DNA of 64,000 nt from Candidatus Adlerbacteria bacterium (GCA_027451965.1 DAIDHJ010000001.1:23639-87638); one strand, 5' to 3'. Shown: positions 2,853 through 59,400, counted from the first letter of the stretch. Numbers and translations are program-made. Notes: generated by a model not told the origin, from the letters alone.

Positions 2853-3616
2853 ATGTGCAAATATTGTTTTACTTTTTCATACCAAGCAATTGCATAGGAA
2901 ATTTTTCCCTTAAACTGAATCATGGTAGTCGTTCTATCAATAGAATTTCTTGGTAGACGAAATATATCGCTCGTAAGAGAAACAATTCCTTCTTTTACTG
3001 TAACTGCTCCTTCAAAATTATTCTTTTTTACTACTTCTACTACAGTATCAGTATAGTCTCCATATGGATATGCGAACACTGAACAACGTTTCTCCAGTCC
3101 GCTTTCAAGTACTGTTTTTGAAATTCTAATCTCTTGTTCTGCCTCTGGTACTAGTACATTTGATAAATGCGGATGAGATGCTGTGTGAGGTTCAATATCA
3201 ATAAGACCAGAATGTTCCATTTCCCTTAACTGTTCTATAGAAAGATATGCTTTATTTTCCCTTCCTTGCATACTAATAAAATTCGTAGTAACAAAGATAG
3301 TTGCTGGAAATTTGAATTCTTTTAAGATGGGAAATGCGTGTTCATAATTATCCGCATATCCATCATCAAACGTAAGTACCACCGCTCCATCTAGTGGCTT
3401 TTTTTGTTGGATACGATATATCAGTTCTTTTAAAGAAATAACAGGAACCTGCATGTCATGCATATATCGCATCTGCTGCTCAAAAGCATACGGAGTAACA
3501 GTAGAAAAATATTTATCAGTACATACAGAATGATACATGAGAATACTTGCATTATTCTCGTACAACTTTCGTTTCGGAATGAAAAAAAATAGGAGATTTT
3601 TGAGTAAGGATTTCAT
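2849..3616 (-). CDS. polysaccharide deacetylase (NodB homology domain)
   Basis: Motif VLTFDDGYADNYEHAFPILKEFKFPATIFV is a NodB signature. The ORF track extends to 3736, but the likely start is MKSLLKNLLFFF at 3616, abutting the upstream gene's stop at 3618. Confidence 0.7.
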   Translation of the reverse strand: MKSLLKNLLFFFIPKRKLYENNASILMYHSVCTDKYFSTVTPYAFEQQMRYMHDMQVPVISLKELIYRIQQKKPLDGAVVLTFDDGYADNYEHAFPILKEFKFPATIFVTTNFISMQGRENKAYLSIEQLREMEHSGLIDIEPHTASHPHLSNVLVPEAEQEIRISKTVLESGLEKRCSVFAYPYGDYTDTVVEVVKKNNFEGAVTVKEGIVSLTSDIFRLPRNSIDRTTTMIQFKGKISYAIAWYEKVKQYLHI

Positions 3617-3617
3617 A

Positions 3618-5638: not shown

Positions 5639-6549
5639 ACATTAAATTCTTCTTCAAGAGAGCGAGTTGTTTTCCCATTTGACCCATATACTCCTTCAAG
5701 CAGATCGAGATCTTTTTTACTTTGCTGTAAAAGAGAAATATTTTTTTCTTCAACTGCCGAGAACACTGTAAGTCCAGCGGGATCTCCTACTCGTTCTTCG
5801 TAGATTTCACGAAGTGCAGCAAAATCTTTTATAAAACAATGACCACCTGCTCCTCGACCACTTTTATGTATTGGATTGGCATACCGGTTGGAAATAAGTG
5901 GATCAGCTTTGAGCGCAAGTTCTATATTTTCCCATGAATAACCAAATGATTGTGCAAGATCATACATAAGATTGAATAATATGATTTGCACGTACCCACT
6001 CGCATTATGCGAATATTTCACAATTTCAGCTTCTGTACTGCTCATGATCCGACTGAATGGCGCTTGGGGTAGAATGGAAAGTACCTGTTCAGCTGCGGCA
6101 CGATGGATCGCATCATCAGCCGATATACCGACAATATTACAAAACGGATGTTCAGCATCATATCCAGCAGTAGCCTCAGAAAGAAATTCTGGAGAATAAA
6201 GTACTACCCGATCCGGATAATCTTGTTGAAAAGACTCTGTAGTACCCGGAAGGATGGTTGATTTCACAACAACTATTTTCCCTTCACCTACTAATCCAAT
6301 AGCTCCTCGTACGATGGAATCATCAAAATATGTTTTCTGTCCTTCCTTGCTCGGTACCGTTGGAGTAGGAACGGCAATAAAGACAATATCGCAGGTAGAA
6401 ATTTTTTCCTTGTTAGTGATATACGGCTCCTCAAGGGAATAGCGTACCACTTCATACCCTCGGCGCTCAAAATCATTTGCATAATTTTTCCCAATATACC
6501 CGTGTCCCACGAATCCGATTTTCGGGCGATTGGCGTTCTCTTTCATCAT
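5635..6549 (-). CDS. nucleotide-sugar (UDP-glucose/GDP-mannose) dehydrogenase family protein, short form
   Basis: NAD-binding N-terminus GFVGHGYIG, IAVPTPT, and the catalytic Cys motif GGHCFIKD (compare GGSCFPKD). At 304 aa it lacks the usual C-terminal UDP-binding domain. Confidence 0.6.
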   Translation of the reverse strand: MMKENANRPKIGFVGHGYIGKNYANDFERRGYEVVRYSLEEPYITNKEKISTCDIVFIAVPTPTVPSKEGQKTYFDDSIVRGAIGLVGEGKIVVVKSTILPGTTESFQQDYPDRVVLYSPEFLSEATAGYDAEHPFCNIVGISADDAIHRAAAEQVLSILPQAPFSRIMSSTEAEIVKYSHNASGYVQIILFNLMYDLAQSFGYSWENIELALKADPLISNRYANPIHKSGRGAGGHCFIKDFAALREIYEERVGDPAGLTVFSAVEEKNISLLQQSKKDLDLLEGVYGSNGKTTRSLEEEFNV

Positions 6550-6587
6550 GGCGGTTACTATACTAAAACAATGAGTATTTTAAAAGG

Positions 6588-8762
6588 TTACCTGCTTTCC
6601 TCTATTCCCCTTTTCCACTCCTGAGCCCAGGTTTGTGCAGATGGCAATGGTATGCGTAACGTTCCCCTTTGTCCGGATCCCAGTACCGAAACCACCCCCG
6701 GAGTAATACCTTCTTCGGGCACAATATATGCTCCTGCTTCTCTGGCAATACCAATATCATAGGACACGGTGGGACAATGAGCGGCAAGCGCTTCCACTAC
6801 TGTTGCACCATACCCTTCAAAACGAGCGGGGGTAGCAATAAAGCAATCAGCTCCTTTATAAAGAGAAAAAACATCAGTGCGATTCCCTAAGAACACCACT
6901 TGTTTTTCAATAGCAAGTTGTGCTGCTAAACGTTGGAATTGTTTCTTTTGAGATCCGTCTCCAGCAACCACTAACCCTGCATGAGGAAATACTTTTAGTA
7001 TGTTTGGGAATGCATACAATACATCTGCCACCCTTTTTTCAGGTTCTAAGCGAGAAACAATAAGCAGCGTATGAGAAAATCCATATGAAGTAAAAGAGAA
7101 TGGAGACGCACTATCGATCGCTTCTTTATTAATAAAAATCGGTAATACGGTTATAGGAGCACGCACGCCGGCGGCAAGTAGTTCTTGCTGTAATGCTTCT
7201 GAGACAACTCGAATGCAATCTGCACGGGATAATAGAAATCGCGCCAGTTGGTATTTAATCCAATGAGCTATTGATTGTTGACGAAATGAAGGATGAAAAA
7301 TATTGGTGTGCAGTTGTAGCTGTAATGGAACTCTCTTGTGCTTAGCGATACGCCACGCAATCCATCCCAAAAAGAATGGATCCTGTGCAGTAACGACGTC
7401 ATATATCATTTCTCTCGCCGCCCATATCATTCGGCGAGCAATAACATGCTTAGCACCTACAAACCCTTGTACTACCCCATGCTCTGCTAACGCACAGGAT
7501 TCACTTCTTGTTGCAGGAACATACACTGTAAGAAAACCAGTTTGTTGCGCTTGCAGTACCAAACGAGCGTGCACAGTACTGGTTTTCTGAAGCGCATTCG
7601 CATCTCCACTGATCATCAGTACGCGAAGTGCTGTATCAATATCGAGTGCTGCACAGGTCTTTGCAACTGTATAGGCACGTGTGTACTGTTTTACATGCAT
7701 GCGTGCTGCAGTAGAAAGTTCTTGTGCATACTCAGTATTAGTGAGAAGACGAGAAATAGCCTGTACCAAAGCTTCCGCATTGTTGTATGGAACCATAAGT
7801 CCTGTCTTTCCGTGTTCTAGTGCATCTGCATTACCGGGAATATCGGTAGTAACTACTGGCGTACCGACCGCACATGCTTCAAGAATTTGATGGGAGAATC
7901 CTTCATATCCCGTATTGAGCGCAAACACATCTGCCGCACGCAGCATTTGCATAAGCACATCTCGAGACACACTTCCGGTAAATACTATATCGAACTTCGG
8001 TGATCGCATGGTTGCCGCGTACGCTTCCAACTCCTTGCGCTGCGGTCCATCTCCCACAATCACTAATTGCACAGAAGGTTGGGTTTCTGAAACACTACGC
8101 ACTGCATCCATCAGGACGTGAAACCCTTTCCATGGTACTAATCTCCCGGAAGAAAGAATGATTTTTCGATTCGCATCCCATTGCAACGTGCGCCGACTTT
8201 CTTCTTGAGAGGGTAGTTCTGGCACTTCCACACTATTAGGAACCATAACAATCTTTTCTTTTGGTATACCCCATCGTTCCACAATGCTTCCTAAATAAGA
8301 GCTTTGTACTAAGACTTTTCGAGCATATCTCGCCACCCATCGTTCTATACGAATAAGAAATAGCAATAAAAAAGGAAAGCTACGAGGCGCATGTGCATAT
8401 CGTTCTAAAAATTGATCAGGAAGTTCAGAAACACCGAACCGCTGCATCCCCTGTTCCCACGCATAATCTCCTCCCACACGAAGATATAACCGTGCATGCC
8501 GCAGTCGCGCCGCGAAACATGCGGGAAGACCGACTGATATGGGATCGAGTGCAAACACAATATCTCCTCTTTGTATTGAAAAAAATAGCTTACCGAAATA
8601 CGCTATATGCCGAATAATTTTTGGAAATGTTCGCACCGACCGAAACGGCAATGTGCAGTAGGAAATATGGCGTTCTGCCAATCCTTCTTCAAATAAAGCT
8701 GCAAATGTTGCCGGACCTCCAATCTCAGGAGGATATACGCCAGTGGCAATGATAATTTTCAT
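6588..8762 (-). CDS. tandem glycosyltransferase (two GT4-like GT-B modules fused in one 724-aa protein)
   Basis: The N-terminal half (MKIIIATGVYPPEIGGPATF...) and the C-terminal half (..FEGYGATVVEALAAHCP..) each look like a complete GT4 module. Confidence 0.7.
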   Translation of the reverse strand: MKIIIATGVYPPEIGGPATFAALFEEGLAERHISYCTLPFRSVRTFPKIIRHIAYFGKLFFSIQRGDIVFALDPISVGLPACFAARLRHARLYLRVGGDYAWEQGMQRFGVSELPDQFLERYAHAPRSFPFLLLFLIRIERWVARYARKVLVQSSYLGSIVERWGIPKEKIVMVPNSVEVPELPSQEESRRTLQWDANRKIILSSGRLVPWKGFHVLMDAVRSVSETQPSVQLVIVGDGPQRKELEAYAATMRSPKFDIVFTGSVSRDVLMQMLRAADVFALNTGYEGFSHQILEACAVGTPVVTTDIPGNADALEHGKTGLMVPYNNAEALVQAISRLLTNTEYAQELSTAARMHVKQYTRAYTVAKTCAALDIDTALRVLMISGDANALQKTSTVHARLVLQAQQTGFLTVYVPATRSESCALAEHGVVQGFVGAKHVIARRMIWAAREMIYDVVTAQDPFFLGWIAWRIAKHKRVPLQLQLHTNIFHPSFRQQSIAHWIKYQLARFLLSRADCIRVVSEALQQELLAAGVRAPITVLPIFINKEAIDSASPFSFTSYGFSHTLLIVSRLEPEKRVADVLYAFPNILKVFPHAGLVVAGDGSQKKQFQRLAAQLAIEKQVVFLGNRTDVFSLYKGADCFIATPARFEGYGATVVEALAAHCPTVSYDIGIAREAGAYIVPEEGITPGVVSVLGSGQRGTLRIPLPSAQTWAQEWKRGIEESR

Positions 8763-8807
8763 AGCAGACAGTTATAGAACTAAGAAATTACTATCAAAGT
8801 CACCTTC

Positions 8808-8892
8808 TGGTGGGCATGGGGAGACTCGAACTCCCAAGGATTGCTCCATACGCTTCTGAGACGTACGCGTATACCAATTCCGCCACATGCCC
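8808..8892 (-). tRNA. tRNA-Leu (anticodon CAG), class II with long variable arm
   Basis: Manual fold of the reverse complement: acceptor GGGCATG/CATGCCC, T-arm GGGAG-TTCGAGT-CTCCC, anticodon loop CTCAGAA, 13-nt variable arm, CCA encoded. Confidence 0.85.
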
Positions 8893-8915
8893 ATCACAGC
8901 ATGGTACGAAAAAAA

Positions 8916-8991
8916 TGGTGCGGGCGCTAGGGATCGAACCTAGGACCTTTCGAGTATCAGTCGAATGCTCTACCAACTGAGCTACGCCCGC
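8916..8991 (-). tRNA. tRNA-Ile (anticodon GAT)
   Basis: Reverse complement reads GCGGGCGTAGCTCAGTTGGTAGAGC...CTGATAC...GGTTCGATCCCTAGCGCCCGCACCA, a canonical cloverleaf with anticodon GAT. Confidence 0.9.
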
Positions 8992-9035
8992 TCACAAAGC
9001 ATCCTAACAAAAAAATACATATTTAGAAACACACC

Positions 9036-9052
9036 TTTCTCTTGTTCCGTTC
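9036..9052 (-). repeat. 3' half of pre-16S processing stem (perfect 17-bp inverted repeat with 10716..10732)
   Basis: tttctcttgttccgttc here is the exact reverse complement of gaacggaacaagagaaa at 10716-10732. This resembles the RNase III stem that brackets 16S in bacteria. Confidence 0.7.
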
Positions 9053-9224
9053 GTCACTCATGTATCGCTTCGTACTCTGTGAAACGATGGATGAGTGAAC
9101 GAGGGCCGAGCGCATATCGGCCAAAGCGGACACATCTATAGGATGTAGTGTCATCATCCACATTCACCGAAGTGAACGTATCGCCATTCAGTTCTGACCT
9201 CGTACGAGGGGCAGAACAGCTTGT

Positions 9225-10687
<1,463 letters not shown>

Positions 10688-30709: not shown

Positions 30710-30828
30710 ACTCTGGCGGCTAGCTACTCTCCCCCACAAGGAGTACCATCGCCGCTGGTGAGCTTAACTTCCGTGTTCGGAATGAGAACGGGTGTTTCCC
30801 CACCGCCAAACCACCAGAGTAGAATTTC
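30710..30828 (-). rRNA. rrf: 5S rRNA
   Basis: Reverse complement reads TCTGGTGGTTTGGCGGTGGGGAAACACCCGTTCTCATTCCGAACACGGAAGTTAAGCTCACCAGCGGCGATGGTACTCC...GCCGCCAGAG. Helix I pairs. Confidence 0.9.
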
Positions 30829-30862
30829 TAAACCAACAACAAATTATTGCGATACTCAAGCC

Positions 30863-34136
<3,274 letters not shown>

Positions 34137-34444
34137 GTTTCTCTCTCATTTGCAGAGAAAGAAGCTTAAGAACCGCAATAATTTGTTGTTGTGTATGTTT
34201 TCTTACCTACCCATTTCCATACCCCGCAAGACCCACCTGAGCAAGATATGTAATGGCATGTAATTTTCAAAGGACGGGGTGCTGTTAGAAATGAAAAAGC
34301 CGCTTCGTTTGCAGAAGCGGCGCTTCAGTAAGCATGATGCTTACCGTCTCCGCTTCGTTGGCTTCTTCGTAAGTAACATACCCTGTGACAGAGAGTATAC
34401 GGGAGTGCACAGGTCGTGTCAAATTCACCTCTCTATCCCATACA

Positions 34445-34491: not shown

Positions 34492-35181
34492 TTACTCTTT
34501 GCCGTGAAGCATTTCTTTGCGTACGCGTTCAATGGCGCGTCCTGCAGCATCTTGCCCTCCCAGTCCGAATGCCAGACCGAAAGCAAGGGATACTGCTACG
34601 ACGAGTCCAGTGAAGATCGTCTGGATGAATGGTGTCACACCCAACTGATCAAGTGCGGCAAGAATGGCAAAAATCCAAATTGCCCAGCGTGTTACTGCAC
34701 CGGCAACACCTGCAGAAGTGACTCCTGCAGCACGTGCTGATCCAGTGACCACATTCTGCATAACCTCAGCAACCACCGCAGCAAGCAGAATAATGAGTAC
34801 TGCAATAATGACGTGTGGAAGATACGAGAGCACCACGGTTTGCAGGAAGACGTTCACATCGGTAAGTCCAAGCACTTGCAGTGATGCAATCAAGAACACT
34901 GCGATGATGAACCATTTCACCAAACCGCCCAAGAATGCACCGGAATCAAGATGGTATCCTGCTTGTCGCACGACACCCTCTACACCCGCAGCGCGGAGCG
35001 CTTGATCTACTTTGATGGCGCGGATTGCTTGTGCAATTGCCCATCCTACCCACACACCGATAAACCATCCGATGACGAAGATGATGATCGCCAACACCAG
35101 GCTTGGAAGGAAACTAATAATGCCGTAAAACAGCGAATAAAAGGATTGCTGCAATACGTTCATCCATGTCTGAAGAATCAT
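34492..35181 (-). CDS. integral membrane protein (multi-TM; MscS-TM-like / TM-helix-repeat)
   Basis: 229 aa, about 6 hydrophobic helices, no soluble domain. Confidence 0.5.
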   Translation of the reverse strand: MILQTWMNVLQQSFYSLFYGIISFLPSLVLAIIIFVIGWFIGVWVGWAIAQAIRAIKVDQALRAAGVEGVVRQAGYHLDSGAFLGGLVKWFIIAVFLIASLQVLGLTDVNVFLQTVVLSYLPHVIIAVLIILLAAVVAEVMQNVVTGSARAAGVTSAGVAGAVTRWAIWIFAILAALDQLGVTPFIQTIFTGLVVAVSLAFGLAFGLGGQDAAGRAIERVRKEMLHGKE

Positions 35182-35294
35182 ATGGAAATAACAATTACGT
35201 TAATAGTTAATGAATAATCTACTCTTTTATTGTAACAACACGAACACTACTTTTGGCTAGTAGGTGGGGATAATAAAGTCCTTATTTTGAGCCT

Positions 35295-37014: not shown

Positions 37015-37164
37015 TTACTGTACGGCAGTGGTATTGTCAACGGATGGTACTGATCGCTGCTTTACAGCGTATCCGGCCGCGATAAGTACACCAAGCGCAA
37101 TGATGATGATGGCAAGGAACCCAAAGAAGAAACGGATGAAGGTTTTGGTAAAAAATCTATTCAT
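37015..37164 (-). CDS. small hypothetical membrane protein (49 aa, single TM)
   Basis: Manual translation MNRFFTKTFIRFFFGFLAIIIIALGVLIAAGYAVKQRSVPSVDNTTAVQ. Its start abuts the TPR gene stop. Below the ORF-track size cutoff. Confidence 0.3.
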   Translation of the reverse strand: MNRFFTKTFIRFFFGFLAIIIIALGVLIAAGYAVKQRSVPSVDNTTAVQ

Positions 37165-37166
37165 GC

Positions 37167-37853
37167 CTACTGCCCGCTTTGCAGCTGCGACTGCAGCTGG
37201 AGCAAGGTTGCATTTCCCGGATTTGCCTTCAATCCTTGTGCGAGGATAGCTGCCGCAGCTGTCGGATTATTCTCTTTGTAGCGGTACAACATATAGAGAT
37301 TGTTATAGAGATCTATGTTGGATGGGTTCAGCTTTATTGCCGCCAAATAATTAGTTTCCGCCTTCGGATAATCGATAAGGAAGTTTGTGTATAGATCACC
37401 TAGATCAGCAAAAGCTATGTAATTTGAAGGAAGAGCTTGTGTAAGATATGTCCAAACATTTGCTGCGGCAACATAATCCCCGGCCTCCTTATAGTCTATA
37501 GCGAGTTGAAGCCAGTTCTGTGTATTTGAGGGGTTGGTTTTAAGTTGGGCCCTTAATTGAGCAATTTGCGTTTGTAGTTGAGTAACAATATCTGTTGATA
37601 GAGTAGAAGAATAGGTTACTTGTTGTGTAAGGCTTGGAAGGGTTACATTTTGAAGTATGTGCACCGTCGCTCCTGCTGGAAGGCCAGTGATGGATATTCC
37701 ATTACCTAATGCAGTGGACGAGGATACATTTCCAGGCATTTGCGTTTCCGTCTTTTGTTGAGTTTCAAGTTTGTGTCTTAAAAATAACCCCCCAATAGCT
37801 ACGAGCAGTAGTATGATCCAAAAACTGAGCCATGAGTATTGTTTATAATGCAT
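37167..37853 (-). CDS. TPR-repeat protein with N-terminal membrane anchor
   Basis: Start at MHYKQYSWLSFWIILLL. The C-terminal half holds several TPR-like repeats (AIDYKEAGDYVAAANVWTYL, LAAIKLNPSN...). Confidence 0.7.
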   Translation of the reverse strand: MHYKQYSWLSFWIILLLVAIGGLFLRHKLETQQKTETQMPGNVSSSTALGNGISITGLPAGATVHILQNVTLPSLTQQVTYSSTLSTDIVTQLQTQIAQLRAQLKTNPSNTQNWLQLAIDYKEAGDYVAAANVWTYLTQALPSNYIAFADLGDLYTNFLIDYPKAETNYLAAIKLNPSNIDLYNNLYMLYRYKENNPTAAAAILAQGLKANPGNATLLQLQSQLQSGQ

Positions 37854-37859
37854 GTTTCC

Positions 37860-37888
37860 ATTGTATCGTGGTCCATATTTCAAGGCAA
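37860..37888 (-). promoter_or_regulatory. candidate promoter TTGCCT-17 nt-TACAAT giving a near-leaderless TPR transcript
   Basis: The -10 element ends about 7 nt before the ATG at 37853. Confidence 0.4.
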
Positions 37889-37911
37889 AAATTTTTATTT
37901 CCCCACAACAC

Positions 37912-37940
37912 AAAAACCCCTCCAATTGGAGGGGTTTTTG
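37912..37940 (-). terminator. bidirectional intrinsic terminator after the 1153-aa gene
   Basis: AAAAA-CCCCTCC-AATT-GGAGGGG-TTTTT. Confidence 0.75.
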
Positions 37941-37988
37941 TTTCCTTCTAACTAAGCTTGATTGATCTTAGGAGATCGAACCAGAGGG

Positions 37989-40900
37989 TTAGTTAGTTCG
38001 GTTTTGAGTAATACCAACCGATGGAAGACCTGCTACGCCATAACCGTTTGTCCAGTCGCTAACCGTCGTAACTGTAGTAGTGGTTGCGTTTGGTGACCAG
38101 ACGAAGTTACTGCCGTTCACTTGAGATACAGTTCCCATGTTACCGGACGTAAGACCAGTTGGGTATGCTGCATCACCATTGAGTGTCGTGCTGACGTTAT
38201 AGGTCGTACCAGAGCCCGCGACAGTACCTACGAGCGAGAAGTAGTAGGTGCCACCTGCTGGAATTTCAAGTGGTCCTGTACCGTTATTTACCACAACGGT
38301 AACTTTCTGAGATCCGGTTGCGCCAAGTACTGAGAGTGCAGAGCTGTTAAGCACACCGCTTGCAAATCCAGGAACTGGTTGAGAGTACCCAGAATCAGTG
38401 TAAGCGTAAAGATTTACGTTAGACACTGTTGCAGAAGTGGTTGCTACTCCGAATACGAGCTGGTTGATACCAATAGGATTCTGAGAACCAGCAGAGATGC
38501 TGAAGCGGATAAGGTGACCATCAGAGACACCGTTTGAGGTCAGTCCAGAGCCAAGTGCGACTGTTGGAACTGAGTGGAATACACGAACTCCTGAAGAAGC
38601 AGTAGTTCCTGTGCTGTAGATGGTTGTACCTGAGTTTGCACCAACACCCTGTGCATCCTTAAGGTCGACTGCAACAAGGTCACCCTCTGTTGCTGGCTGG
38701 AATGAACCAACCGCAGCAATATCACCCTTCACAAGGATCTGCGCATCCTGATTGTTTGGAAGCTGAACCACTGTAGAGAGCGTTGAAGTTGCTACCGTCG
38801 AACCGCTTGGGAATTGCATAGTACCAAGCAATGTACCTGGTGCTACTGCTGCTCCGCCAGTCGTGTACACATTATTTCCTGCGTACAAGTACACATTGCT
38901 GAGATCAGCTGCAGAAGATGAAGCGGTTGCAGTTGTGAGAGACAATGCAATCTTCTGAAGATTGACCGGCTCGTTTGCTGCATGAAGCTTGATCACATTA
39001 AGAAGTGCACCAGTTGTACCACCTGCAACGAGCGTGTAGGACGGTGAAGATGGGTCAATAGATGCTGCAAGCGTTGCGCCAGAAGAGATGGTCATAGTAG
39101 GAGCAGTACCTACGCCCGTAAAGGTTGGGGTTACTGAGCTACCAGATACTGAACCGCTCACTGACCAATCACCTGCCGTGCTGTCTACACCCCACTGGTA
39201 GGTACCAGTAGCGGATGAAGAAACACTACACTGGAGATTAAGGCTGAGGATCGTTCCTTTCGGAATAACAAGCGAGTTATCGAGGCTGAAGTTTGTCTTT
39301 CCGCCTGATGTCGTGTTGATGTTTGAACCATTGATTACACGAGTACCAGTATTCAATGCAGTAGATCCGTTATAGATCTGACAAGCACTGAGATTAAGCT
39401 GTCCGTTTGTACCGCTGAAGGTAAGATCGAGCGGTATTGAAGAAAGACGGATGTCTTCTCCAGATTGTGAAGCATCAAGAGAAACAGTAGCGAATACTAC
39501 ATTGCTTCCTCCAGCAACCACATTCTGTGAGACTGGAGTCGTGCCATTAGTAGCATTAAGCGTTGCCGCTTGTACCGTCATCGTGTTCATGGTGACAGTA
39601 TTGCTTGGCAAGCTAATAGTGTTTCCTGTGGTATTTCCAGTCACACTGCTCCAATCAGTTGATGGAGTAGTTGAAGCCTGGATCGTAATACCACCAGCAG
39701 TTCCACTCGGCACTTCACCTTGCAGGGTGTACGTTGCCGCACCTGTTGGGAAGTTGATTGCTCCGGTGAAGGTTACGGACTCATCGGTGCAGGTAGCACC
39801 GGCATTACAGGTCGCATTGTATGGACCGGCAATAACGCTGCCGTTCTGATTCACCAACGAAACGTTCGTAAGCGGTGAGATAGAAGCACTGCTGTGGAAG
39901 TGTACCGTTACGCTCTGTGCAGTGATTGACTCACCAGTGAGGTTCGTCTGGAAACCACCGAGAGGCTGATTAAGTACGTTCACACCAATGTTCTGTGCTG
40001 CTACTGAGGTTGCGTTCTGGAAGGTTGAGATCGAGCCCGCAGTTACAGTAACGGTTGCACCGAAGTAGAACGGGTTGCTTGAAGCTTGGAAGCCAGAATT
40101 AGCATTGTTCGTCGTTGAGTAAGTACCTGAACCAGTTGCCGTTGGCGTGATGCCATAGCCATAGGTATTGCCTACGAGATAAATATCGGTTGCGCGATAG
40201 ATATCGAACTCTGCTGTGGAATTAGCATTCGTGTTAGAGCTGAGATCACCCTGCACATAGAGGTCGAGTGATTGACCCTTTGGAATCACAATGCCGCTTG
40301 GGAATGTAGAAGTGTAGTAGCGTCCAGTCGCATCAACGGTCGTCGGATATGACGTACCATTTACTACTGTAACTACGTTAGAAACTCCTGAAGCAGATCC
40401 TGATTGATACCAAGTGATTGACTTGAGTGTCTGATCTTCAGCAGAACCAGCCTGGAGACGGATTGCTGAGAAGCGATATCCGGATGTGCCAATTGGTTGA
40501 CTTGAAGAAGAACGTGGGTCAAACGATGAGAATGACACCGTGTTGGTACCAATGGTAAGCGTATTGTTCATCGTCACGCTTGCACCGGTGATCGGGAGTG
40601 ATCCTGATACTGATGAAGACGTATTGATTGCAGTGACTGCAATAGACGCAACATCACCAGAACCAACAGAAGATGCAATATTACCTGCCACTTGGAAGGT
40701 CATTGAGGTTCCTGCTGGGATAGTGATCGGCTGACCGATGGTTGCGCTGTGATTGGCATCAAACACATGGGAGATACCCATCTGCTGGCCAGTTGCAACG
40801 TTGATGAGCTCTACTCCAGAGAAATCAGTGTCGAGGGATGGACCCTGTCGTACGATTGAAACACTGTTAAGTGTTACTGGAGCGCCGTTTGCCGTAACCG

Positions 40901-41450
40901 TGAAGGTGGTAAACGGAACGCGAGACGCAAGCTTAGGAGCAACTGAATTTGCTGGCTGAGCAGCAACAGATACTACTGCAGTACCTGCAGCGGTTCCTGT
41001 CGTGGTCGTGCCAGTGCCAGTGCTACCGCCAGTTGTTGAACCGGAGGTCGTACCTGCGCACAGTGCATTTGCTTCTGCGCGAGATGATGGACCCCAGTAG
41101 CCTGATGCAACAGAAAGTCCGACTGGAGCAAGCACGTTAGAAGCGTACTTGGTCTGGAACTTCTTGATTGCCGCGGTCGTGAGCGGTCCGAGGTACGTAG
41201 TCTCATTTCCTGGAGATCCTGCACCTACGGAAGCGACCATCGTGTCCGGACTGGAGTTCAAGAACTGCTGAAGCTGCATGACTGCTGTTCCGGTAGAACC
41301 TTTCTTAAGGTTCATTGAGAACGTGGTGCCTGGGCAGATAGATGCTGCGTGTGCTGGAGCAACAGAAACTGTTGCGAACACAAATGCAGCAAGCGCTACG
41401 ACACCAAAGGTCAAGGCAGCAAGCCCTGTAGAACGATTGGTTAATGTCAT
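37989..41450 (-). CDS. large secreted cell-surface protein: signal peptide, PG_binding_1-like domain, Thr/Gly-rich linker, ~1000 aa of repetitive beta-rich Ser/Thr/Gly/Val modules
   Basis: N-terminus: hydrophobic signal with AHA-AS cleavage site. Peptidoglycan-binding motif: LKKGSTGTAVMQLQQFL...LGPLTTAAIKKFQ. The rest is low-complexity repeats. Confidence 0.7.
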   Translation of the reverse strand: MTLTNRSTGLAALTFGVVALAAFVFATVSVAPAHAASICPGTTFSMNLKKGSTGTAVMQLQQFLNSSPDTMVASVGAGSPGNETTYLGPLTTAAIKKFQTKYASNVLAPVGLSVASGYWGPSSRAEANALCAGTTSGSTTGGSTGTGTTTTGTAAGTAVVSVAAQPANSVAPKLASRVPFTTFTVTANGAPVTLNSVSIVRQGPSLDTDFSGVELINVATGQQMGISHVFDANHSATIGQPITIPAGTSMTFQVAGNIASSVGSGDVASIAVTAINTSSSVSGSLPITGASVTMNNTLTIGTNTVSFSSFDPRSSSSQPIGTSGYRFSAIRLQAGSAEDQTLKSITWYQSGSASGVSNVVTVVNGTSYPTTVDATGRYYTSTFPSGIVIPKGQSLDLYVQGDLSSNTNANSTAEFDIYRATDIYLVGNTYGYGITPTATGSGTYSTTNNANSGFQASSNPFYFGATVTVTAGSISTFQNATSVAAQNIGVNVLNQPLGGFQTNLTGESITAQSVTVHFHSSASISPLTNVSLVNQNGSVIAGPYNATCNAGATCTDESVTFTGAINFPTGAATYTLQGEVPSGTAGGITIQASTTPSTDWSSVTGNTTGNTISLPSNTVTMNTMTVQAATLNATNGTTPVSQNVVAGGSNVVFATVSLDASQSGEDIRLSSIPLDLTFSGTNGQLNLSACQIYNGSTALNTGTRVINGSNINTTSGGKTNFSLDNSLVIPKGTILSLNLQCSVSSSATGTYQWGVDSTAGDWSVSGSVSGSSVTPTFTGVGTAPTMTISSGATLAASIDPSSPSYTLVAGGTTGALLNVIKLHAANEPVNLQKIALSLTTATASSSAADLSNVYLYAGNNVYTTGGAAVAPGTLLGTMQFPSGSTVATSTLSTVVQLPNNQDAQILVKGDIAAVGSFQPATEGDLVAVDLKDAQGVGANSGTTIYSTGTTASSGVRVFHSVPTVALGSGLTSNGVSDGHLIRFSISAGSQNPIGINQLVFGVATTSATVSNVNLYAYTDSGYSQPVPGFASGVLNSSALSVLGATGSQKVTVVVNNGTGPLEIPAGGTYYFSLVGTVAGSGTTYNVSTTLNGDAAYPTGLTSGNMGTVSQVNGSNFVWSPNATTTTVTTVSDWTNGYGVAGLPSVGITQNRTN

Positions 41451-41904
41451 AAATTTTCGAACGAAAAAATTATTTTTAATGCTACGAATAAAGCGAACTA
41501 ATAAACCTACCTGCCAACATCATTGTTTTTCTCAATCCATAGTCTCTGTTTAAAGAAAGTACGAGATGAAAAAACACACATGACAGCTTAGGTAGCAAGA
41601 GAGAAGTGGAATCGGTCAGGCAACCAAAACAGAGCGAGGAGGATTCCATATAGATGAAAGGTGCAAAAAAACACCCTCACGCACTTACAACTAACAATAC
41701 TGAAGACGCGATTTACTCGCGTATCTTACCTATGTTTTTCACGAACAAGTTCTGTATGCAGTTGTCAATGAGCGGGTATTTTCTGCCCTAAGCAAAAGCC
41801 CAGAATGCCTGGATAGAACCTGGTACTATTATAGGCAGGGCCAAAAAAGCCTGCAAAAATACCGTGTGGATAAGGTTACACTAGGCCAGATGGAGGGTCA
41901 ATGC

Positions 41905-42621
41905 TCACTGGGTCGTCGGCAGATATATGCTCCAGCGACGCTCCCCTACTTTTTTTACCGATCCTTCCTTTATGAGCTGCACCAGCTCTCGCTGTATGGT
42001 TTTCTCACTGCAATTACGGACAATATTAGAAATTTCTTTGATTGAAACGCCTTTTTTACTTTTTATAAAATTCAGGATCTTCGCTGTGCGATCAGTTTGA
42101 GATGGAAGTGTTGAGTGTGCTGATATAGGGTGTCCTTTACTATGTCCTTTATATAGTGAAGCAGGAGACTCTGTCTTTCCTGGCAAAACCGGCATTTCTT
42201 CTCCCGTAAAAAACGGTACGGCGAATTGTTCCGGAGATACAAGCAGCGGCGTTCTTTCTTCCTCTAATCGCTCAGCGATACCCTCGCATTCAGCGATGAT
42301 AAGCAGTCCGTTTTCTTCACTCAGCAATCCTTGCAGCATGGCCGATCGCAGTATCGATATAAGTGAAAATACATTTCCCAGTGCCTCACTACGATGCACG
42401 CTTCCCGCACAAAAGTATATGATCCCGTCTGTCACCTTTTGCGCTTTACCGAGCACGTCTTTCCATATAGATGCAGTGCCGGGTATGCTGTGTTGTCCTA
42501 GATAGGCAAGCGTATGCGCAACCCGTTCCGATTTCAAATAGCAAAAATAATACTGAGACCGTCCTTTAAAAAGCGCTGAAGAGAGAGCGAAATCATGAAA
42601 CTTTTTTGTCTTTTCTGGCAT
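41905..42621 (-). CDS. putative transcriptional regulator with C-terminal winged-helix HTH
   Basis: C-terminal GVSIKEISNIVRNCSEKTIQRELVQLIKEGSVKKVG. The N-terminal ~170 aa are unassigned. Confidence 0.45.
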   Translation of the reverse strand: MPEKTKKFHDFALSSALFKGRSQYYFCYLKSERVAHTLAYLGQHSIPGTASIWKDVLGKAQKVTDGIIYFCAGSVHRSEALGNVFSLISILRSAMLQGLLSEENGLLIIAECEGIAERLEEERTPLLVSPEQFAVPFFTGEEMPVLPGKTESPASLYKGHSKGHPISAHSTLPSQTDRTAKILNFIKSKKGVSIKEISNIVRNCSEKTIQRELVQLIKEGSVKKVGERRWSIYLPTTQ

Positions 42622-42748
42622 GTCCGTTGTATGACTTTTTATGTATGTCTTTTATTAAAATAGCTGAGCTATAAGACACATATAAAGTGTCCTAGAGTAT
42701 ATATCGAAACGAAAAAAAGTCTACGGACGTGCGTGCTATGATGATTCC

Positions 42749-44964: not shown

Positions 44965-45327
44965 ATGGTGCGCCAAGGAATACTACTGCTGTACATAGGA
45001 ATCATCAGTGCTGCCCTCATTGCCGGATATACCCTGTTTGAAGGGCATAAGCTGCTAGAAGGACCGCAAATCAGTATTGCGAGCCCTCGAGATGGGAGTG
45101 CAACCTCTTCCCCAATGGTGCTGGTCTCAGGCGAGGCCTATAACATTGCGTTTTTGAGCATCGATAACGCTCCTGCGTACGTAGATACCAAGGGCCACTT
45201 TATGGAGGTCATTTCCCCGCCGCCGGGGTATAGTGTACTCACAGTGACCGCCAAGGATCAGTTCGGACGCACTGTCTCCAAGGTGGTGCACTTCACGGTC
45301 ACCAATTACTGTCCGCTTAATGCATAA
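44965..45327 (+). CDS. hypothetical small exported/membrane-anchored protein
   Basis: 120 aa with an N-terminal hydrophobic helix, lying between ftsK and recA in the same operon. Confidence 0.45.
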
Positions 45328-53892: not shown

Positions 53893-55839
53893 CTACCGGG
53901 AAACTACTTGCCCCATCTGAGCGGTATACCGTGAATCATTAGATAGTATGGTGGAAAGAGCATCTGCGGTTTCTTGCACATTCGTCTGTGTGAATTGATC
54001 CTGACCTACGAGCACGCTTTGCGTGGTAAGCGCGGGTGCGGTTCCCACTTGAGAAAGGCTCGGCGTAAGCGCCACTTGAAATGCTGCTTGCAGTGCGGCG
54101 CTGGAATATCCGGTACCGGCGGTTACCGTACGCACATTCCAGGTTACGGTACGGCTGCTGGCATCGTATGAGACATTTGATCCTGGTTGCGCGGCGACAA
54201 ATTGGACATACGGAGGCAATGTGGTGGTTACCATGACATTGGTGAGCGAATTCGAAGAATTCTTAATGGACCACAGCACCGTATAGGCTGTATTTTCTCC
54301 AACCACCGGTGGCATAGGTCCGGGATCGGAAAATGGACCGCTGAAATGCAGTGCCTGTGCAGTAAGAGTCACCAGAGAGGAAATAAGCACGTTTGCATTT
54401 GCTGCAGAAGATACCGTGCTGGGCACACTGGTCTGCCCCTCTGGAGTACCGTTGAGAGAAAGATTCAGGAATACTGAAGGATTTGTACTCCCTTTCGTGT
54501 TCGCTATAGAAAATGAGAACGGAAATGATCCAGTTCCTCCGGGAGGAATGGAAGCAAGCTGTGCATCCTCTTGCGAATCCCAGGTAATGGTTGAATTGGA
54601 GGACTGATAAAATCCATCCGGGGCGCTGACTGAACTTTTATCAAGCGCATCTCCGGTAAGGGATAGTTGGAGCGAAAGGTTTGATACGGCGGTAGACAGA
54701 TTGTTCGTCCAGGTGACAGTGCCGTTTACGGTGCTATTCGGGGCTACTGATACCGTACCCCCCGACTGCCCATTCAAAGCCAATAGTGCCTGTACAAAGG
54801 GCTGCTGCACCGTCAAGGTCTGCGGTACAGAAAGAAACGGTACAGCAACATGTACATCGGTTGGATTACTGTCAGACCCAACAAGGAAACGGAATACGCG
54901 CTCATCGCCGTTTTGTCCTTGAAGGGCGCCGACGATATGAATCGTTTTAATATCTCCCGGTTGCAGCGTGCCTAACCGCCAAATAGTTCCTCCAGCATCT
55001 CCCTGCGGAGTCGATGAAGCAATGGAAAATCCGAATGGATACTGAGCTTCTAACATGACATCTGGAATGGGCGTAGCTGCATTTGCCTGTACCGTGAGGT
55101 CCATGGAGAATGATTGTCCAGATATCGCTTGAGACGGTGCATTTACTGATACGGACACCGGAGATGATCCGACAAGAAAATTCACCGAAGCTTGTTTTTG
55201 AAATACTGCATTTGAACCGGGTACGCTATATTCAAGGGTCACATTTACTGTCTGCTGCATCCCTTGCTGTCCGTAAAAAATAGCGTTCAGCGTATTGTGT
55301 ATCTGTCCTCCTGAAGGGATGGTGCCGATGGTTTGCGTATCATGTTGGAGCGCCTGAGATGGATCACTGGCGCTGTGTGTGCCGTCCGGATAATCAATAA
55401 TGAGATCGGCGAGTGTCAGTGCCGTTTTGTTATGGTTATCGATAATGACCTGCAGCGTGGCGCTCTTTCCTCCTTCAACCACCGACGGAGCAACAATCTG
55501 CATATCAATGTTCTGTGAGGAGATGAAATTCGCACCGCCAAAAAAGAGATATGCCGCCGCTGCTGCTGCGCCGACGAAAAAGAGAATGGAGACAATAAGA
55601 AATTTGCCGGCAAACGACGCGCCCTTCCTCTTTTTCGATTCTGTAAATTGCGTGAGCGGAGGCGCTGTCGGCTCTGCCGTTTCCATTTCAGGAGATGTCT
55701 CCCAAGCATGCGGCACTTCTTCCTCAAATGGAGAGAGCGGCGTGCGGATATCATTTCCTACTGCCGGTTTTTGTGTACGCGAATAGAGTTCTTTTTTGAG
55801 CCGCTCAATAGCATCCTTATCGTCATGCCCCATGAGCAA
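53893..55839 (-). CDS. membrane-anchored surface protein: cytoplasmic N-terminus, one TM segment, ~500-aa Ser/Thr/Asn-rich repetitive beta-rich ectodomain
   Basis: 648 aa. TM segment is FLIVSILFFVGAAAAAAYLFF. The ectodomain is low-complexity (SVSVNAPS..., TVTW...). Confidence 0.6.
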   Translation of the reverse strand: MLMGHDDKDAIERLKKELYSRTQKPAVGNDIRTPLSPFEEEVPHAWETSPEMETAEPTAPPLTQFTESKKRKGASFAGKFLIVSILFFVGAAAAAAYLFFGGANFISSQNIDMQIVAPSVVEGGKSATLQVIIDNHNKTALTLADLIIDYPDGTHSASDPSQALQHDTQTIGTIPSGGQIHNTLNAIFYGQQGMQQTVNVTLEYSVPGSNAVFQKQASVNFLVGSSPVSVSVNAPSQAISGQSFSMDLTVQANAATPIPDVMLEAQYPFGFSIASSTPQGDAGGTIWRLGTLQPGDIKTIHIVGALQGQNGDERVFRFLVGSDSNPTDVHVAVPFLSVPQTLTVQQPFVQALLALNGQSGGTVSVAPNSTVNGTVTWTNNLSTAVSNLSLQLSLTGDALDKSSVSAPDGFYQSSNSTITWDSQEDAQLASIPPGGTGSFPFSFSIANTKGSTNPSVFLNLSLNGTPEGQTSVPSTVSSAANANVLISSLVTLTAQALHFSGPFSDPGPMPPVVGENTAYTVLWSIKNSSNSLTNVMVTTTLPPYVQFVAAQPGSNVSYDASSRTVTWNVRTVTAGTGYSSAALQAAFQVALTPSLSQVGTAPALTTQSVLVGQDQFTQTNVQETADALSTILSNDSRYTAQMGQVVSR

Positions 55840-55851
55840 AGTATATCGTAC

Positions 55852-56424
55852 TCACAAATCACTTGCCCGAAGCGATTCATTTATCATGCTGACAAGTAAC
55901 CGCCGCGACTGTTCGGCCTGTGAAAGAAGTCCGGTTGAAAAGGTGTTGTCCGTTAAGAACGGCAGCAGCGCGTCTGGCGGAGAAACATATCCCAAATGTG
56001 CAAGAATCCTCAGAACAAGGACCCATTCTACCGGAGCAAGTGTGGTGCGATCTGCAGAGGCAAGTGTACTGAGCCCTTGTTCCGCTGCTTCATATACCAA
56101 TGGAATCGGTTCTTGCCCTTGAATAAGGCGCAGCAGCAGCAGCACAATGCGGCCTGCTGCTGCTGTAGCAGATATATCTCCAGCAAACCCCGTGATCTGC
56201 TCTGCGCCGACCAAACGCCATTCGTGCTTTCCGCGCACGAATGCAAAGCGAGCTGTGGTAAGCGGTTCGACGCCGTAACGGAGCTTTGATCGTTCAAGAC
56301 GAACGCTACGTGCATGCACCCGCAAGAGACCGTATTCTTCGGTAAGGATAGTGACAATGCTGTGCGACTCTCCCACTGGATATTTTTTCAATACAATCCC
56401 CCGGCTAGTCGCGATGTTATACAT
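55852..56424 (-). CDS. recO: DNA repair protein RecO
   Basis: Start at MYNIATSRGIVLKKYPVGESH (N-terminal OB fold). The ORF-track extension overlaps ileS. Confidence 0.75.
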   Translation of the reverse strand: MYNIATSRGIVLKKYPVGESHSIVTILTEEYGLLRVHARSVRLERSKLRYGVEPLTTARFAFVRGKHEWRLVGAEQITGFAGDISATAAAGRIVLLLLRLIQGQEPIPLVYEAAEQGLSTLASADRTTLAPVEWVLVLRILAHLGYVSPPDALLPFLTDNTFSTGLLSQAEQSRRLLVSMINESLRASDL

Positions 56425-59400
56425 GAGAAATCGTGCAGGTGATCGGAAAAGGAAATTCCGGATGCATGTCTCCTCCTTCTTCAAGGATGAGTGCTGCCAG
56501 ACCTGTCTCTGCGATAACGTTTTCTCGAACCGCTTCAAGAAATGCTTTCCCTTCTTCGTTTGTGGCGACAGAAAGCTCGGGACGATCCGTAATCGTCAGT
56601 CCTTCTTTCTTGCGCAAATCCTGCACAGTCCGGATCATGTCCCGCAACCATCCTTCCCGCTTGAGCTCTGGCGTGAGGATGGTATCAAGCAATACTTCTT
56701 CTGCTTGCGAAGGATTTTCTTTTACTGTTTTTACATTCACCTCTTCAGCAAGAATGGCGTGCAAACGAGCATCTGCAGGAAGGGTGCGAGCACTCAAAGA
56801 TGCAAGAGGTTGGCGCACTTTTATTCCCGATCGCTCTCGCAGTTCAAGCCCACGAGAAGCAAGCGTGCGTATGTGTGCCATAGCCTCGAGAAGCGGTTGA
56901 TCTGAAGGAAGTCCTGTCGGCCACTGGGAAAGATGCACGCTTTCCGGATCAGCATCTTGTTTCACTTGTTGAAACAGATATTCGGCAAAGAAGGGCATGA
57001 CGGGAGCGATGATATGGGAAAGGGTGTAGAGGACATACCGCATGGTAGCAAACGCTGTATGGTCGTTCTTTTTAAAGCGATCTCGAGAACGTCGCAGATA
57101 CCATGTCGAAAGATCATCAATAAACAGTGCTAGAGGACGCACCGCAAGATCAAGTTGGTATGTTTCAAATCCTTGTGTCGTTTCTGCCAGCAATGCACCT
57201 AAACGGGACAGTATCCACTGATCCAGAGGGTGCGCACTGCTGGCACTGCGTGTTACGCCGACATGTTCTCCGGCATACATTGCATAAAATGAGTGGACAT
57301 TATCGAGGCGCATGAGCAGCTTTTTTGAAACCTCTTCTACGCCACGCGTGGAAAACCGGAGATCTTCTCCGCGAACTACCGGCGAAGCGAGCATGTAATA
57401 GCGCATGGCATCCACACCGTACTGTTCTATGACATCGAGTGGATCAGGATAATTTTTGAGTCGTTTGCTCATTTTTTGCCCGTCTTCCGCAAGGATGAGC
57501 CCGTTTACAATCACATGCTTATACGGAGCTCGATTGAACAATGCACTTCCGAGCACCATGAGGGAATAGAACCATCCTCTTGTCTGATCGAGACCCTCAG
57601 CAATGAAATCGGCAGGGTATCTCAGTGGCGCTAATCCAAACAGTCGTTTCGGATTAAATCTTCCGCGTACGAATGGATAGTGATTGCTGGCAAACGGCAT
57701 GGATCCTGATTCAAACCAACAATCAAATACGTCTGGAATGCGTTTCCAGTGCCCTTGTATGGCATCTCCCAAAGGAATGTCATCTATATACGGACGATGC
57801 AGATCCAATTCAAATAATGCATTGTGCGGAAATGCTACAAAGGAAAGTTCCTTCCATTCTCCTACCTCTGGATACCATGCACGCCGCATCGTTTTCTCTT
57901 CTTCGATTGAAATACGATTACTGATGTCATACATGAGCCATGCAGGATCGCCGTGCGTAATACACAAAATATTTTTTCCGGTATATCGCCGCTCTACATC
58001 AAATAGAAATTCACCGACACGCTGCCGCACCGCAGGATACGTTTCCATTCCTTCTGGCACACGTGCAGAGTCAAAATGATCTGCATGAGAAAATGCCTTT
58101 CTCCATTCCTCGATAGGTTTTCCATTGAACGGTCCGCTTTGTAATTCTGTTAGGCGTTCATCTACCATCACTGCCGCATCAGGAAGCCCGAGCACTGTTT
58201 GCACAATACGCGCAGTTTCTTGCGCACGCGCAAGCGGCGACGTGACAATATAATCAATACGCATCTGCGAGCGCAGTGATTGGGCTTGCTGTTGAACACG
58301 TTCCTTGCCCTGCTGGGTAACATGATCAGGAATTCGATCATCACAATGCAATATCCCGGAAACATTGTGATCTGCTTCTCCGTGACGCATCACTATATAG
58401 CGATTACCCGAACGGCGTATCAAGGAAAGGAGTTCAGCAACTGATCCGATAACACGCACTGCTTTTGTTTTGGTATTCCGCCATACCGGAATCGGCGCTC
58501 CCCAGTACCTGCTTCGAGATATTGCCCAATCAGGCGCTCCTGCAATACCTTTATGGAAGCGATTCTTTCCTACATATTCCGGCACCCAGGTGACTTTGCT
58601 GTTTTCCTTAAGCAATTTTGTTTTGAGTGCAGCTACTTTTACAAACCAGGAATGTGCCGCCCAATTAAGAAGCGGGGTATCGCATCGCCAGCAGTGAGGA
58701 TAGCTGTGTTTTATTTTTTCTTGTGCAAACAGCAGATGCTGTGCTTCTAAGTAGGAAACGATTTTTTGATCCGTTTCCATATGCCTTCCTTTCGGTTTCA
58801 CTGGAAGATTGGCAAAATCGATCACCTCTTGCGTAAATTTCCCTTCTTCAGTGACATGGTGGATAAGCGGAATTTTTTCCTTCTGCGCAAGCAGCAGATC
58901 TTCTTCGCCAAATGCAGGGGCCAGATGCACAATGCCGGTACCATCTTCGTCCGTTACATACGGAGCGGCATACACCTTGAACGCATGCGTTTTATGCTTA
59001 TGAAGCGTGTCTATAAAGTATGGAAACGGCGGCTGATAACGTTTTCCCAGGAGCTGTTTTGGTTCAATCGAACTCACAATAGTTGCAGTATCTCCGAACA
59101 CCGACGAAACCCGGTTGCGTGCGAGAATAAAGTACTCATTTTCTCGCTCCACTTTGACGTATGCGAGAGAAGGGTTGATTGCAGCGGCAGAATTTGCCGG
59201 AAGCGTCCAGGGTGTCGTTGTCCAAATAAGCAACGAGGTACGCTCCTCATCAAGGAGTGGCAGTTTTACGGTAACTGCAATGTCTTCTATCTCCTTGTAG
59301 CCGAGAGCAACTTCAAAATTAGCGAGCGTGGTCCCGCATCGGGGACAGAGGTGAAGCGCTTTAAATCCTTCATATATCAAGCCTTGTTCAAACAAATTTT

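Follow-up and report, generated by a model that had tools for sequence, protein, structure and literature searches.

Which protein coats the cell of a Paceibacteria bacterium, and how might its gene be controlled? The question is raised by a locus at positions 37015-42621 of a 64,000-nt stretch of DNA from Candidatus Adlerbacteria bacterium (GCA_027451965.1, DAIDHJ010000001.1:23639-87638; hereafter, the window), which we read as one strand, 5' to 3'. The Candidate Phyla Radiation (CPR, or Patescibacteria) makes up a large share of bacterial diversity, and the envelope of these bacteria mediates their episymbiotic life. To our knowledge, no envelope protein from Paceibacteria has been characterized experimentally. 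The window is placed within the CPR class Paceibacteria: its ribosomal RNA (rRNA) genes are unlinked, and all homologs derive from metagenome-assembled genomes (MAGs) of Paceibacterota/Parcubacteria. On the minus strand, the locus encodes, in order, a 238-aa regulator, a 454-nt gap, a 1153-aa open reading frame (ORF), a hairpin, an ORF for a protein with tetratricopeptide repeats (TPR), and a 49-aa ORF, followed by rplJ and rplL. We predict that the 1153-aa gene probably encodes a surface-layer (S-layer) protein, that is, the surface coat of the cell, and we judge this to be a better reading than its main rival, an adhesin. An original prediction, made from the DNA alone, had described a cell-envelope locus of four ORFs with a 454-nt non-coding gap and strong terminators on both flanks. 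All four ORFs are found where it placed them, on the minus strand, and the gap upstream of the large gene has the length it gave; the flanking terminators are absent from the ends of the locus, and the sole strong terminator is internal, between the large and TPR genes.

The case for an S-layer protein begins with the architecture of the large protein, which combines a signal peptide, a peptidoglycan (PG) anchor, a linker, six beta modules, and a C-terminal tail in an acidic chain of low charge. The N-terminus (MTLTNRSTGLAALTFGVVALAAFVFATVSVAPAHA, with AS following the cut) has the n-region, h-region, and AXA site of a Sec signal peptide, with cleavage after AHA as read from the sequence. In an AlphaFold2 model built with the family alignment as input (mean predicted local distance difference test score, pLDDT, of 87.6), this segment is unstructured (pLDDT <50 over residues 1-36), and it is followed by a helical PG-binding domain, a second disordered stretch at residues 134-152 (also pLDDT <50) within the Thr/Gly-rich linker, and an all-beta remainder. 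The mature protein has 1118 aa and a mass of 112 kDa, with a pI of 4.8 and only 6.4% charged residues. The composition of the large protein is led by T (14.6%), S (13.4%), G (11.4%), A (10.3%), V (9.4%), and N (7.0%). Taken singly, the window protein matches PG_binding_1 at residues 54-102 with an E-value of 4.7e-4 and 20.7 bits, just under the Pfam cut-off of 23. A profile of 73 homologs, when compared to the PDB, matches the PG-binding domain of 1lbu, a Streptomyces DD-carboxypeptidase (E=9.6e-6), and most homologs carry a precomputed PF01471 annotation; because of these two family-level results, we regard the predicted anchor as secure despite its sub-cut-off single-sequence score. The domain is bracketed by Cys39 and Cys131, two of six cysteines in the protein (the others being residues 548, 554, 690, and 741). 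The cleavable signal peptide, the PG_binding_1-type domain, and the Thr/Gly-rich linker of the original prediction are thus all borne out, the first by legible n, h, and c regions with a cut between AHA and A, the second at the level of the family, and the third by low pLDDT. The linker may also be a substrate for O-glycosylation, as that prediction had suggested.

The remaining body had been described as repeated, beta-rich modules. Self-BLAST of the protein detects no repeats; a profile self-comparison (E=4e-20) yields offsets of approximately 147, 330, 473, and 635 residues, from which we derive six modules of ~158 residues between residues 156 and 1095. This region of the model is all-beta with pLDDT mostly >90. 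The modules are therefore real, but the term "repetitive" was an overstatement, as they are strongly diverged and fixed in number: they are ancient rather than the product of a recent repeat expansion. They are followed by a conserved tail with the motif NFVWSPNATTT...DWTNGYGV.GLPS.G..QTRSN, in which W1118 and D1132 are invariant, and many further positions nearly so, among the 73 homologs. The protein lacks an LPXTG motif and a C-terminal transmembrane (TM) segment, ending in ...GLPSVGITQNRTN. Searches of Pfam and NCBIfam at E<=1 give no match to the S-layer homology (SLH) domain (PF00395), and neither database reveals an enzyme or catalytic domain. The NCBIfam scan and a single-sequence PDB search return nothing for the large protein, and the family-profile PDB search returns the PG-binding domain with no match to the beta modules. 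The domain searches thus tie the modules to no family with a non-surface role, in keeping with what was first proposed.

From these features, we propose the following model. The large protein would be exported by the Sec pathway and its signal peptide cut after AHA; the N-terminal PG_binding_1 domain would attach to the cell's own peptidoglycan; the Thr/Gly linker would cross the cell wall; and the six immunoglobulin (Ig)-like modules together with the C-terminal tail would pack laterally into a two-dimensional lattice as the outermost layer. The gene would form an autonomous unit whose expression is probably very strong, driven from a sigma-70-type promoter with an activator-type site, TTATCCACA, through a leader of ~370 nt to a strong terminator. 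The regulator and a leaderless operon of the TPR protein and the micro-protein are co-inherited with it; their most likely roles would be to regulate its expression and to help with its anchoring or assembly where membrane and wall meet.

Does the fold of the modules decide what the protein does? When the whole model is searched with Foldseek against the PDB, the matches are Ig-like arrays: the Enterococcus surface adhesin PrgB (8beg, E=2e-16), macroglobulin MG domains, and the legs of integrin alpha. Sequence identities are 8-10% and TM-scores are ~0.1. A search against viral models likewise finds generic Ig/FN3/MG/DUF11 arrays only, the top match being a DUF11 protein. Such matches to a predicted model define the fold class alone and do not discriminate an S-layer protein from an adhesin. 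They do bear on a further explanation, in which the protein would be a structural or protective component of the wall that forms no lattice, either a PG-tethered spacer or shield or a macroglobulin-like protease trap. Bacterial and eukaryotic alpha-2-macroglobulin MG arrays are matched with E-values of ~1e-10 to 1e-12, and the high conservation of the protein (below) suggests a housekeeping role. With the TM-scores and identities given above, however, the likeness to macroglobulins is that of generic beta-sandwich arrays only, and the absence of a helical thioester domain speaks against a protease trap: the model is all-beta after residue 133, neither the thioester CxEQ motif nor an A2M Pfam match is present, and the six cysteines lie in other contexts. 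We consider this explanation very unlikely.

The family of the large protein is both widespread and well conserved. A word-indexed search recovers 608 homologs, nearly all of 1120-1220 aa with full-length coverage, and an exhaustive profile search with E<=1e-30 recovers no fewer than 3011 clusters, formed at 50% identity. Relatives are encoded by at least 343 GTDB species representatives, including Adler-, Kaiser-, Zambryski-, Nomura-, Yonath-, and Taylorbacteria. The nearest relative of the window protein (61% identity) is found in an Adlerbacteria MAG. Across 72 loci, a length of 1064-1233 aa and the six modules are constant, and the alignment contains 60 invariant columns, including Cys690, Cys741, and the C-terminal motif. 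Full-length identity to orthologs (42-61%) is comparable to that of ribosomal protein L10 from the same loci (37-71%) and above those of the TPR protein (22-56%) and the regulator (23-60%). Few proteins exposed at the surface are conserved to this degree, which points to a structural role under constraint. One ortholog leads directly to the published record. In the locus L054 of Kaiserbacteria GW2011_GWA2_52_12, the ORF at 5989..9510 (1173 aa) is identical to UniRef100_A0A0G1WWP5 by exact sequence look-up, shares the synteny of the window locus, and is 43% identical to the window protein over query residues 3-1153. A0A0G1WWP5 is listed in a supplementary table of predicted patescibacterial S-layer proteins, with a hexagonal lattice of symmetry '6+2,3' (10.1101/2024.05.28.596244). 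That this family forms S-layers has thus already been proposed computationally, and the window protein is a further member of the predicted kind.

Observations on other Paceibacteria are consistent with such a coat. Nealsonbacteria, which belong to the Paceibacteria, bear an apparent S-layer in cryo-EM, for which the authors named PG-binding proteins as candidates (10.1101/2022.04.20.488981), and a 2026 review states that S-layers have been reported for some species of the phylum (PMC13293708). In Kuroda et al. 2024, the five secreted genes with the highest expression in each of three Paceibacteria include signal-peptide proteins with PG-binding domains, and one such protein reaches a log2(RPKM+1) (reads per kilobase per million) of 16.7 versus 12.0 for ribosomal protein S13 (PMC10936435).

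The same study reads these highly expressed proteins as host-attachment factors (PMC10936435), which brings in the adhesin as the main rival. In that explanation, the PG-binding domain would bind the cell's own wall or that of the host, and the six modules would form a stalk or fibril that reaches to the host, with no lattice. The best structural matches, PrgB and the integrin legs, are arrays of adhesins and receptors; wall-anchored Ig-like arrays would fit fibrillar adhesins too; and one member of the clusters is automatically annotated as 'Serine-rich adhesin, platelet-type'. On the other hand, the fixed number of modules, the high full-length conservation, and the 60 invariant columns are atypical for an adhesin where hosts are diverse, and the protein has neither a separate tip or ligand-binding domain nor an LPXTG motif, while its repeat number does not vary. 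Moreover, the cited Paceibacteria have archaeal hosts, which lack peptidoglycan, and the ortholog is predicted to form a planar lattice. We consider a pure adhesin unlikely, with the caveat that the two roles are not mutually exclusive.

Several points weigh against the S-layer as well. Poor conservation is usual among S-layer proteins, and this family departs from it by its unusually high conservation. The top 50 Foldseek PDB matches include no solved S-layer protein. The S-layer role of the whole family remains a prediction, the '6+2,3' lattice being an AlphaFold-multimer prediction in a preprint (10.1101/2024.05.28.596244). The highly expressed protein for which numbers are given is shorter (692 aa) and may not be homologous to the window protein (PMC10936435). 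With these points included, what the original prediction proposed, an episymbiont of small genome whose surface carries a PG-anchored protein of S-layer or adhesin type, encoded beside accessory envelope genes, is supported by the architecture, the Paceibacteria origin of the window, and the published prediction for the ortholog, and the S-layer is the likelier of the two forms.

How the gene is organized adds to this picture. The promoter of the large gene, TTTGCA-18-TATAAT, matches 10 of 12 consensus positions, and its location would set the transcription start such that a leader of ~370 nt precedes the ORF. Long upstream gaps are found in all 77 measurable loci (330-1063 nt, median 646), which is very long for such compact genomes. 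A Rfam scan of the 454-nt gap gives no credible RNA, the sole match being to a eukaryotic snoRNA model with E=0.4, far under the gathering score, and the fold stability of the gap is not unusual when compared to shuffled sequence (z=-1.1). Among 13 close relatives, the leader keeps conserved blocks, namely UCGUUGACAACUnCAUA, the pair CUACC...GGUAG, which is invariant, and, close to the start codon, GAUUACAAGUAA. A leader hairpin, CUCCUUUAAUAGGAG, shows three compensatory pairs, and the ATG is not preceded by a Shine-Dalgarno sequence. Downstream, the large gene has its own terminator, first proposed at 37912-37940 and confirmed here as a palindromic A-tract/GC stem/T-tract with a 14-bp stem. 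Of 79 loci, 72 have an equivalent hairpin after the large gene, and its median distance from the stop codon is 46 nt. In being monocistronic, with its long leader and its strong, conserved terminator, the large gene follows the classic layout of S-layer genes. These traits, the consensus-like promoter, and the very high transcription of PG-binding-domain proteins in other Paceibacteria lend indirect support to a place among the most abundant proteins of the cell, as would be expected of an S-layer protein.

The most sharply defined element of the gap is TTATCCACA, which lies 7 nt upstream of the -35 hexamer, matches the DnaA-box consensus at 9/9 positions, and is the only perfect copy in the window. 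Of 78 orthologous gaps, 71 contain it without a mismatch and all 78 with at most one, always on the strand of the large gene. TATAAT-like -10 boxes are found at a fixed distance from it across loci: the spacing from its end to the -10 box is 30-32 nt in 51 loci or 40-44 nt in 14, two classes that are one helical turn apart. In 1.09 Mb of loci, there are 116 occurrences versus ~8 expected by chance, 70 of them inside the gaps, which total 50 kb, and the remaining 46 mostly before neighboring genes for membrane or secreted proteins, including an MscS-like channel and ftsK. The commonest variant here is TTGTCCACA, the actinobacterial DnaA-box consensus. Since the phasing is fixed and the -35 boxes are weak, the element may be a site for an activator. 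DnaA and the adjacent winged helix-turn-helix (wHTH) regulator are equally plausible as its binder; the regulator is co-inherited, and its recognition helix is also invariant. Tentatively, and with more doubt than confidence, we suggest that DnaA or the regulator, bound to TTATCCACA at approximately -48 (or -58), drives the S-layer gene together with an envelope regulon comprising the MscS-like channel, FtsK, and secreted proteins. If true, these ultra-small bacteria would tie the synthesis of their surface coat to the initiation of replication or to the state of the cell cycle. We found no description of such a promoter element in the literature.

Additional copies of the box are seen at other genes. 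In the window, the gene of the MscS-like channel (34492-35181, minus strand) is preceded by ATTATCCCCA-N30-TACAAT, with the box at 35265-35273 (minus strand). Orthologous channel genes carry ATTATCCACA in L049, L052, L053, L055, and L074 and variants (TTTATCCACA) in L051 and L071, and the box also occurs at ftsK and at several small secreted 'ATTISTNI.T.GTL' proteins. Together, these boxes hint at a small envelope regulon. In three species (L052, L053, and L068), the match to the large protein spans ~5 kb (6001 to ~11000), and a second TTATCCACA-type promoter and extra genes for small secreted proteins lie directly downstream of the large gene, an arrangement that suggests local expansion of the cassette. 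We also considered the gap as a replication origin and rejected it: there is a single box, near-matches are not enriched in the window (10 versus 13.5 expected), and the box has a fixed position relative to the promoter.

Are the companion genes part of the same system? By tblastn of the window proteins against 84 orthologous loci, the regulator is found upstream on the same strand as the large gene in 81, a divergent ftsK lies upstream in 80, the TPR gene follows downstream in 73, and rplJ lies further downstream in 47. The simplest alternative is that the four genes are neighbors through genome compaction alone and that the regulator, TPR protein, and peptide are unrelated to the large protein. 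No direct evidence ties the companions to it, gene order tends to be well kept in CPR genomes (as it also is here for recA-ftsK and rplJL), and in L004 the peptide is split from the TPR gene by other genes and remains beside rplJ. The order of regulator, large gene, and TPR gene, a core shared by about 80 species, nevertheless holds in 73-81 of the loci despite inserted genes and the departures of rplJ/rplL, and the TPR ectodomain is low in charge and Ser/Thr-rich like the large protein. We rate mere compaction as rather improbable, if somewhat less so than the adhesin.

The regulator is predicted with a mean pLDDT of 85.2 as a four-helix bundle (residues 1-121), a disordered linker (~125-170), and a wHTH (173-235) with helices at 173-188, 194-200, and 206-218 plus a beta wing. 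The wHTH has a BlaI/MecI/ArsR-type fold by Foldseek (BlaI, MecI, and HlyU, root-mean-square deviation ~2-2.7 Å). Of 45 family members, 33 match HTH_36 and 31 match HTH_DeoR, although the window regulator alone falls below the Pfam cut-offs, and the recognition helix is invariant across the 45. The C-terminal wHTH that had been assigned to this protein is therefore upheld by both family profiles and fold. As for its N-domain, thought to be 170 aa and unassigned, it indeed has no sequence relative and no informative structural relative (the resemblance to the 2gsc four-helix bundle in Foldseek is weak), but it consists of a 121-residue bundle and a disordered linker of ~50 residues. In the 127-nt divergent region between the regulator and ftsK, an imperfect 25-nt inverted repeat (42630-42694; 76% complementary, 15 nt apart) may be an operator.

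The TPR ORF can be read as 252 aa from a TTG (37925..37167) or as 228 aa from the ATG at 37853. The ATG is the likely start because the TTG falls inside the terminator hairpin; the 228-aa form also agrees with orthologs of 232-274 aa. This form comprises an N-terminal TM helix, a Ser/Thr-rich spacer, and a TPR domain at approximately residues 80-225. TPR_14 reaches 28.2 bits, above its cut-off of 23.5, with eight other TPR models weaker, so that the TPR membrane protein of the original prediction is recovered. Charged residues make up 9.8% of the ectodomain versus 22-33% of cytoplasmic neighbors, and because this low charge is like that of the large protein, we infer that the TPR domain is extracytoplasmic. 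The near-leaderless arrangement also proposed for this gene is seen here as a promoter-like TACAAT that ends 6 nt before the ATG, and it recurs in 21 of 53 loci, where the ATG is 6-9 nt past a -10-like hexamer; the mRNA thus looks leaderless. The start codon of the 49-aa peptide is 2 nt after the TPR stop codon. In 39 of 66 loci, a homologous small TM ORF comes after the TPR gene, with the conserved motif YF(D/T)KxFxxFxxGFxAI, by which the ORF, called a TM peptide from the outset, can be taken as a real gene. Its position upstream of rplJ suggested SecE, a candidate that we rejected, as there is no SecE match and the peptide has a conserved motif of its own. In a joint reading with the TTATCCACA activator regulon, the pair of leaderless TPR protein and micro-protein could represent a novel type of factor that assembles or anchors the S-layer, an idea that we hold to be possible, if somewhat doubtful.

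Table 1. Positions of the locus features in the window, with the evidence for each
Feature	Position	Strand	Basis or remark
Regulator gene, 238 aa	41905..42621	-	ORF call
Non-coding gap, 454 nt	41451-41904		Between regulator and large gene
TTATCCACA element, DnaA-box-identical	41865..41873	-	Motif match
Sigma-70-type promoter, TTTGCA-18 nt-TATAAT	41828..41857	-	Consensus match
5' untranslated leader, ~370 nt, inferred	41451..41821	-	Promoter position
Large surface protein gene, 1153 aa	37989..41450	-	ORF call
Signal peptide, residues 1-35	41346..41450	-	Sequence features
PG_binding_1-type domain, residues 36-133	41052..41345	-	Profile matches, model
Thr/Gly-rich flexible linker, residues 134-155	40986..41051	-	pLDDT and sequence
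Six Ig-like beta-sandwich modules	38166..40985	-	Profile self-alignment, model
Modules by residue: D1 156-302, D2 303-466, D3 467-623, D4 624-782, D5 783-952, D6 953-1095			Boundaries are our own parse
Conserved C-terminal tail, residues 1096-1153	37992..38165	-	Homolog alignment
Strong intrinsic terminator	37910..37941	Not assigned (palindromic)	A-tract / GC stem / T-tract
Promoter-like site, TTGCCT-17 nt-TACAAT	37860..37888	-	Ends 6 nt before TPR ATG
TPR membrane protein gene, 228 aa from ATG 37853	37167..37853	-	ORF and TPR_14
49-aa single-pass membrane micro-protein	37015..37164	-	ORF call

Elsewhere in the window, the 16S (9225-10687) and 23S-5S (30711-34145) rRNA genes lie on the minus strand with ~20 kb of protein-coding genes between them, and the 23S match covers 3273 nt versus a 2925-nt model, which implies insertions of ~350 nt. 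At 423-8762 (minus strand), a glycan-biosynthesis island has a GC content of 36-37% versus ~49% and encodes a sugar C-methyltransferase, three GT4 glycosyltransferases (one a double GT4 of 724 aa), a polysaccharide deacetylase, an NAD-dependent epimerase/dehydratase, and a UDP-glucose dehydrogenase-like protein. The island may have been acquired horizontally and could supply glycans for the wall or S-layer. A second candidate surface protein of the window is encoded at 53893-55839 (minus strand; 648 aa, with a DUF11 match), and a 120-aa TM-anchored protein with a Glucodextran_B-like Ig domain at 44965-45327 (plus strand) is found between ftsK and recA in 70 of 84 loci. Finally, a 1168-aa class I tRNA synthetase of the isoleucyl type (56417-59923, minus strand) has a His_Phos_1 domain inserted at residues 510-666, inside its catalytic domain.

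The locus offers a concrete and very widespread candidate for a coat protein, with conserved partners and a sharply defined cis-regulatory site, and as the first Paceibacteria co-cultures now exist, all three have become testable. Among known systems, a similar layout is seen in the SLH-anchored S-layer proteins of Bacillaceae, such as Geobacillus SbsB and Bacillus anthracis Sap/EA1. In those proteins, approximately six consecutive Ig-like domains form the lattice, and the gene is monocistronic and highly expressed with a long leader. The window protein shares with them a signal peptide and an N-terminal wall anchor followed by about six beta-sandwich or Ig-like domains. It differs in that the anchor is PG_binding_1 rather than three SLH repeats, there is no detectable sequence similarity, and both are missing from its top 50 Foldseek PDB matches. 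PrgB is its best structural match as a string of Ig-like domains, with only 9% identity and TM-scores of 0.13-0.19, and has an LPXTG anchor and a separate adhesin domain, neither of which is found in the window protein. The PG-binding secreted proteins of Kuroda et al. 2024 come from the same bacterial class, with a signal peptide, a PG-binding domain, and Ig-like folds, and are very highly transcribed; one of them, PMX_810_sub_00350, has 692 aa, and the authors' reading is of host-attachment enzymes or adhesins (PMC10936435).

Two further comparisons concern the promoter and the family itself. The DnaA box is the 9-bp site of DnaA, a replication initiator that is also a transcription factor, with the consensus TTATCCACA or TT(A/T)TNCACA. 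The window element is identical at 9/9 positions and asymmetric like a monomer-binding DnaA box; unlike the clusters at origins, it is a single box in a promoter. The published counterparts of the window protein are the predicted S-layer proteins of the 2024 preprint, which lists, beside A0A0G1WWP5, Nealsonbacteria A0A1G2EN61, Parcubacteria GMX59286.1, and more (10.1101/2024.05.28.596244). GMX59286.1, a protein of 1185 aa from the work of Kuroda et al., is a possible member of the family. With A0A0G1WWP5, which comes from a different species, the window protein shares family, length class, PG-binding N-terminus, Ig-like body, and locus. The preprint provides a table entry and a predicted lattice; it does not describe the surrounding locus with its regulator, TPR, and peptide genes, nor the leader and the promoter element, and what we add to it are the locus-level and regulatory observations: the four-gene cassette, the long leader, the apparently leaderless TPR operon, and the promoter element.

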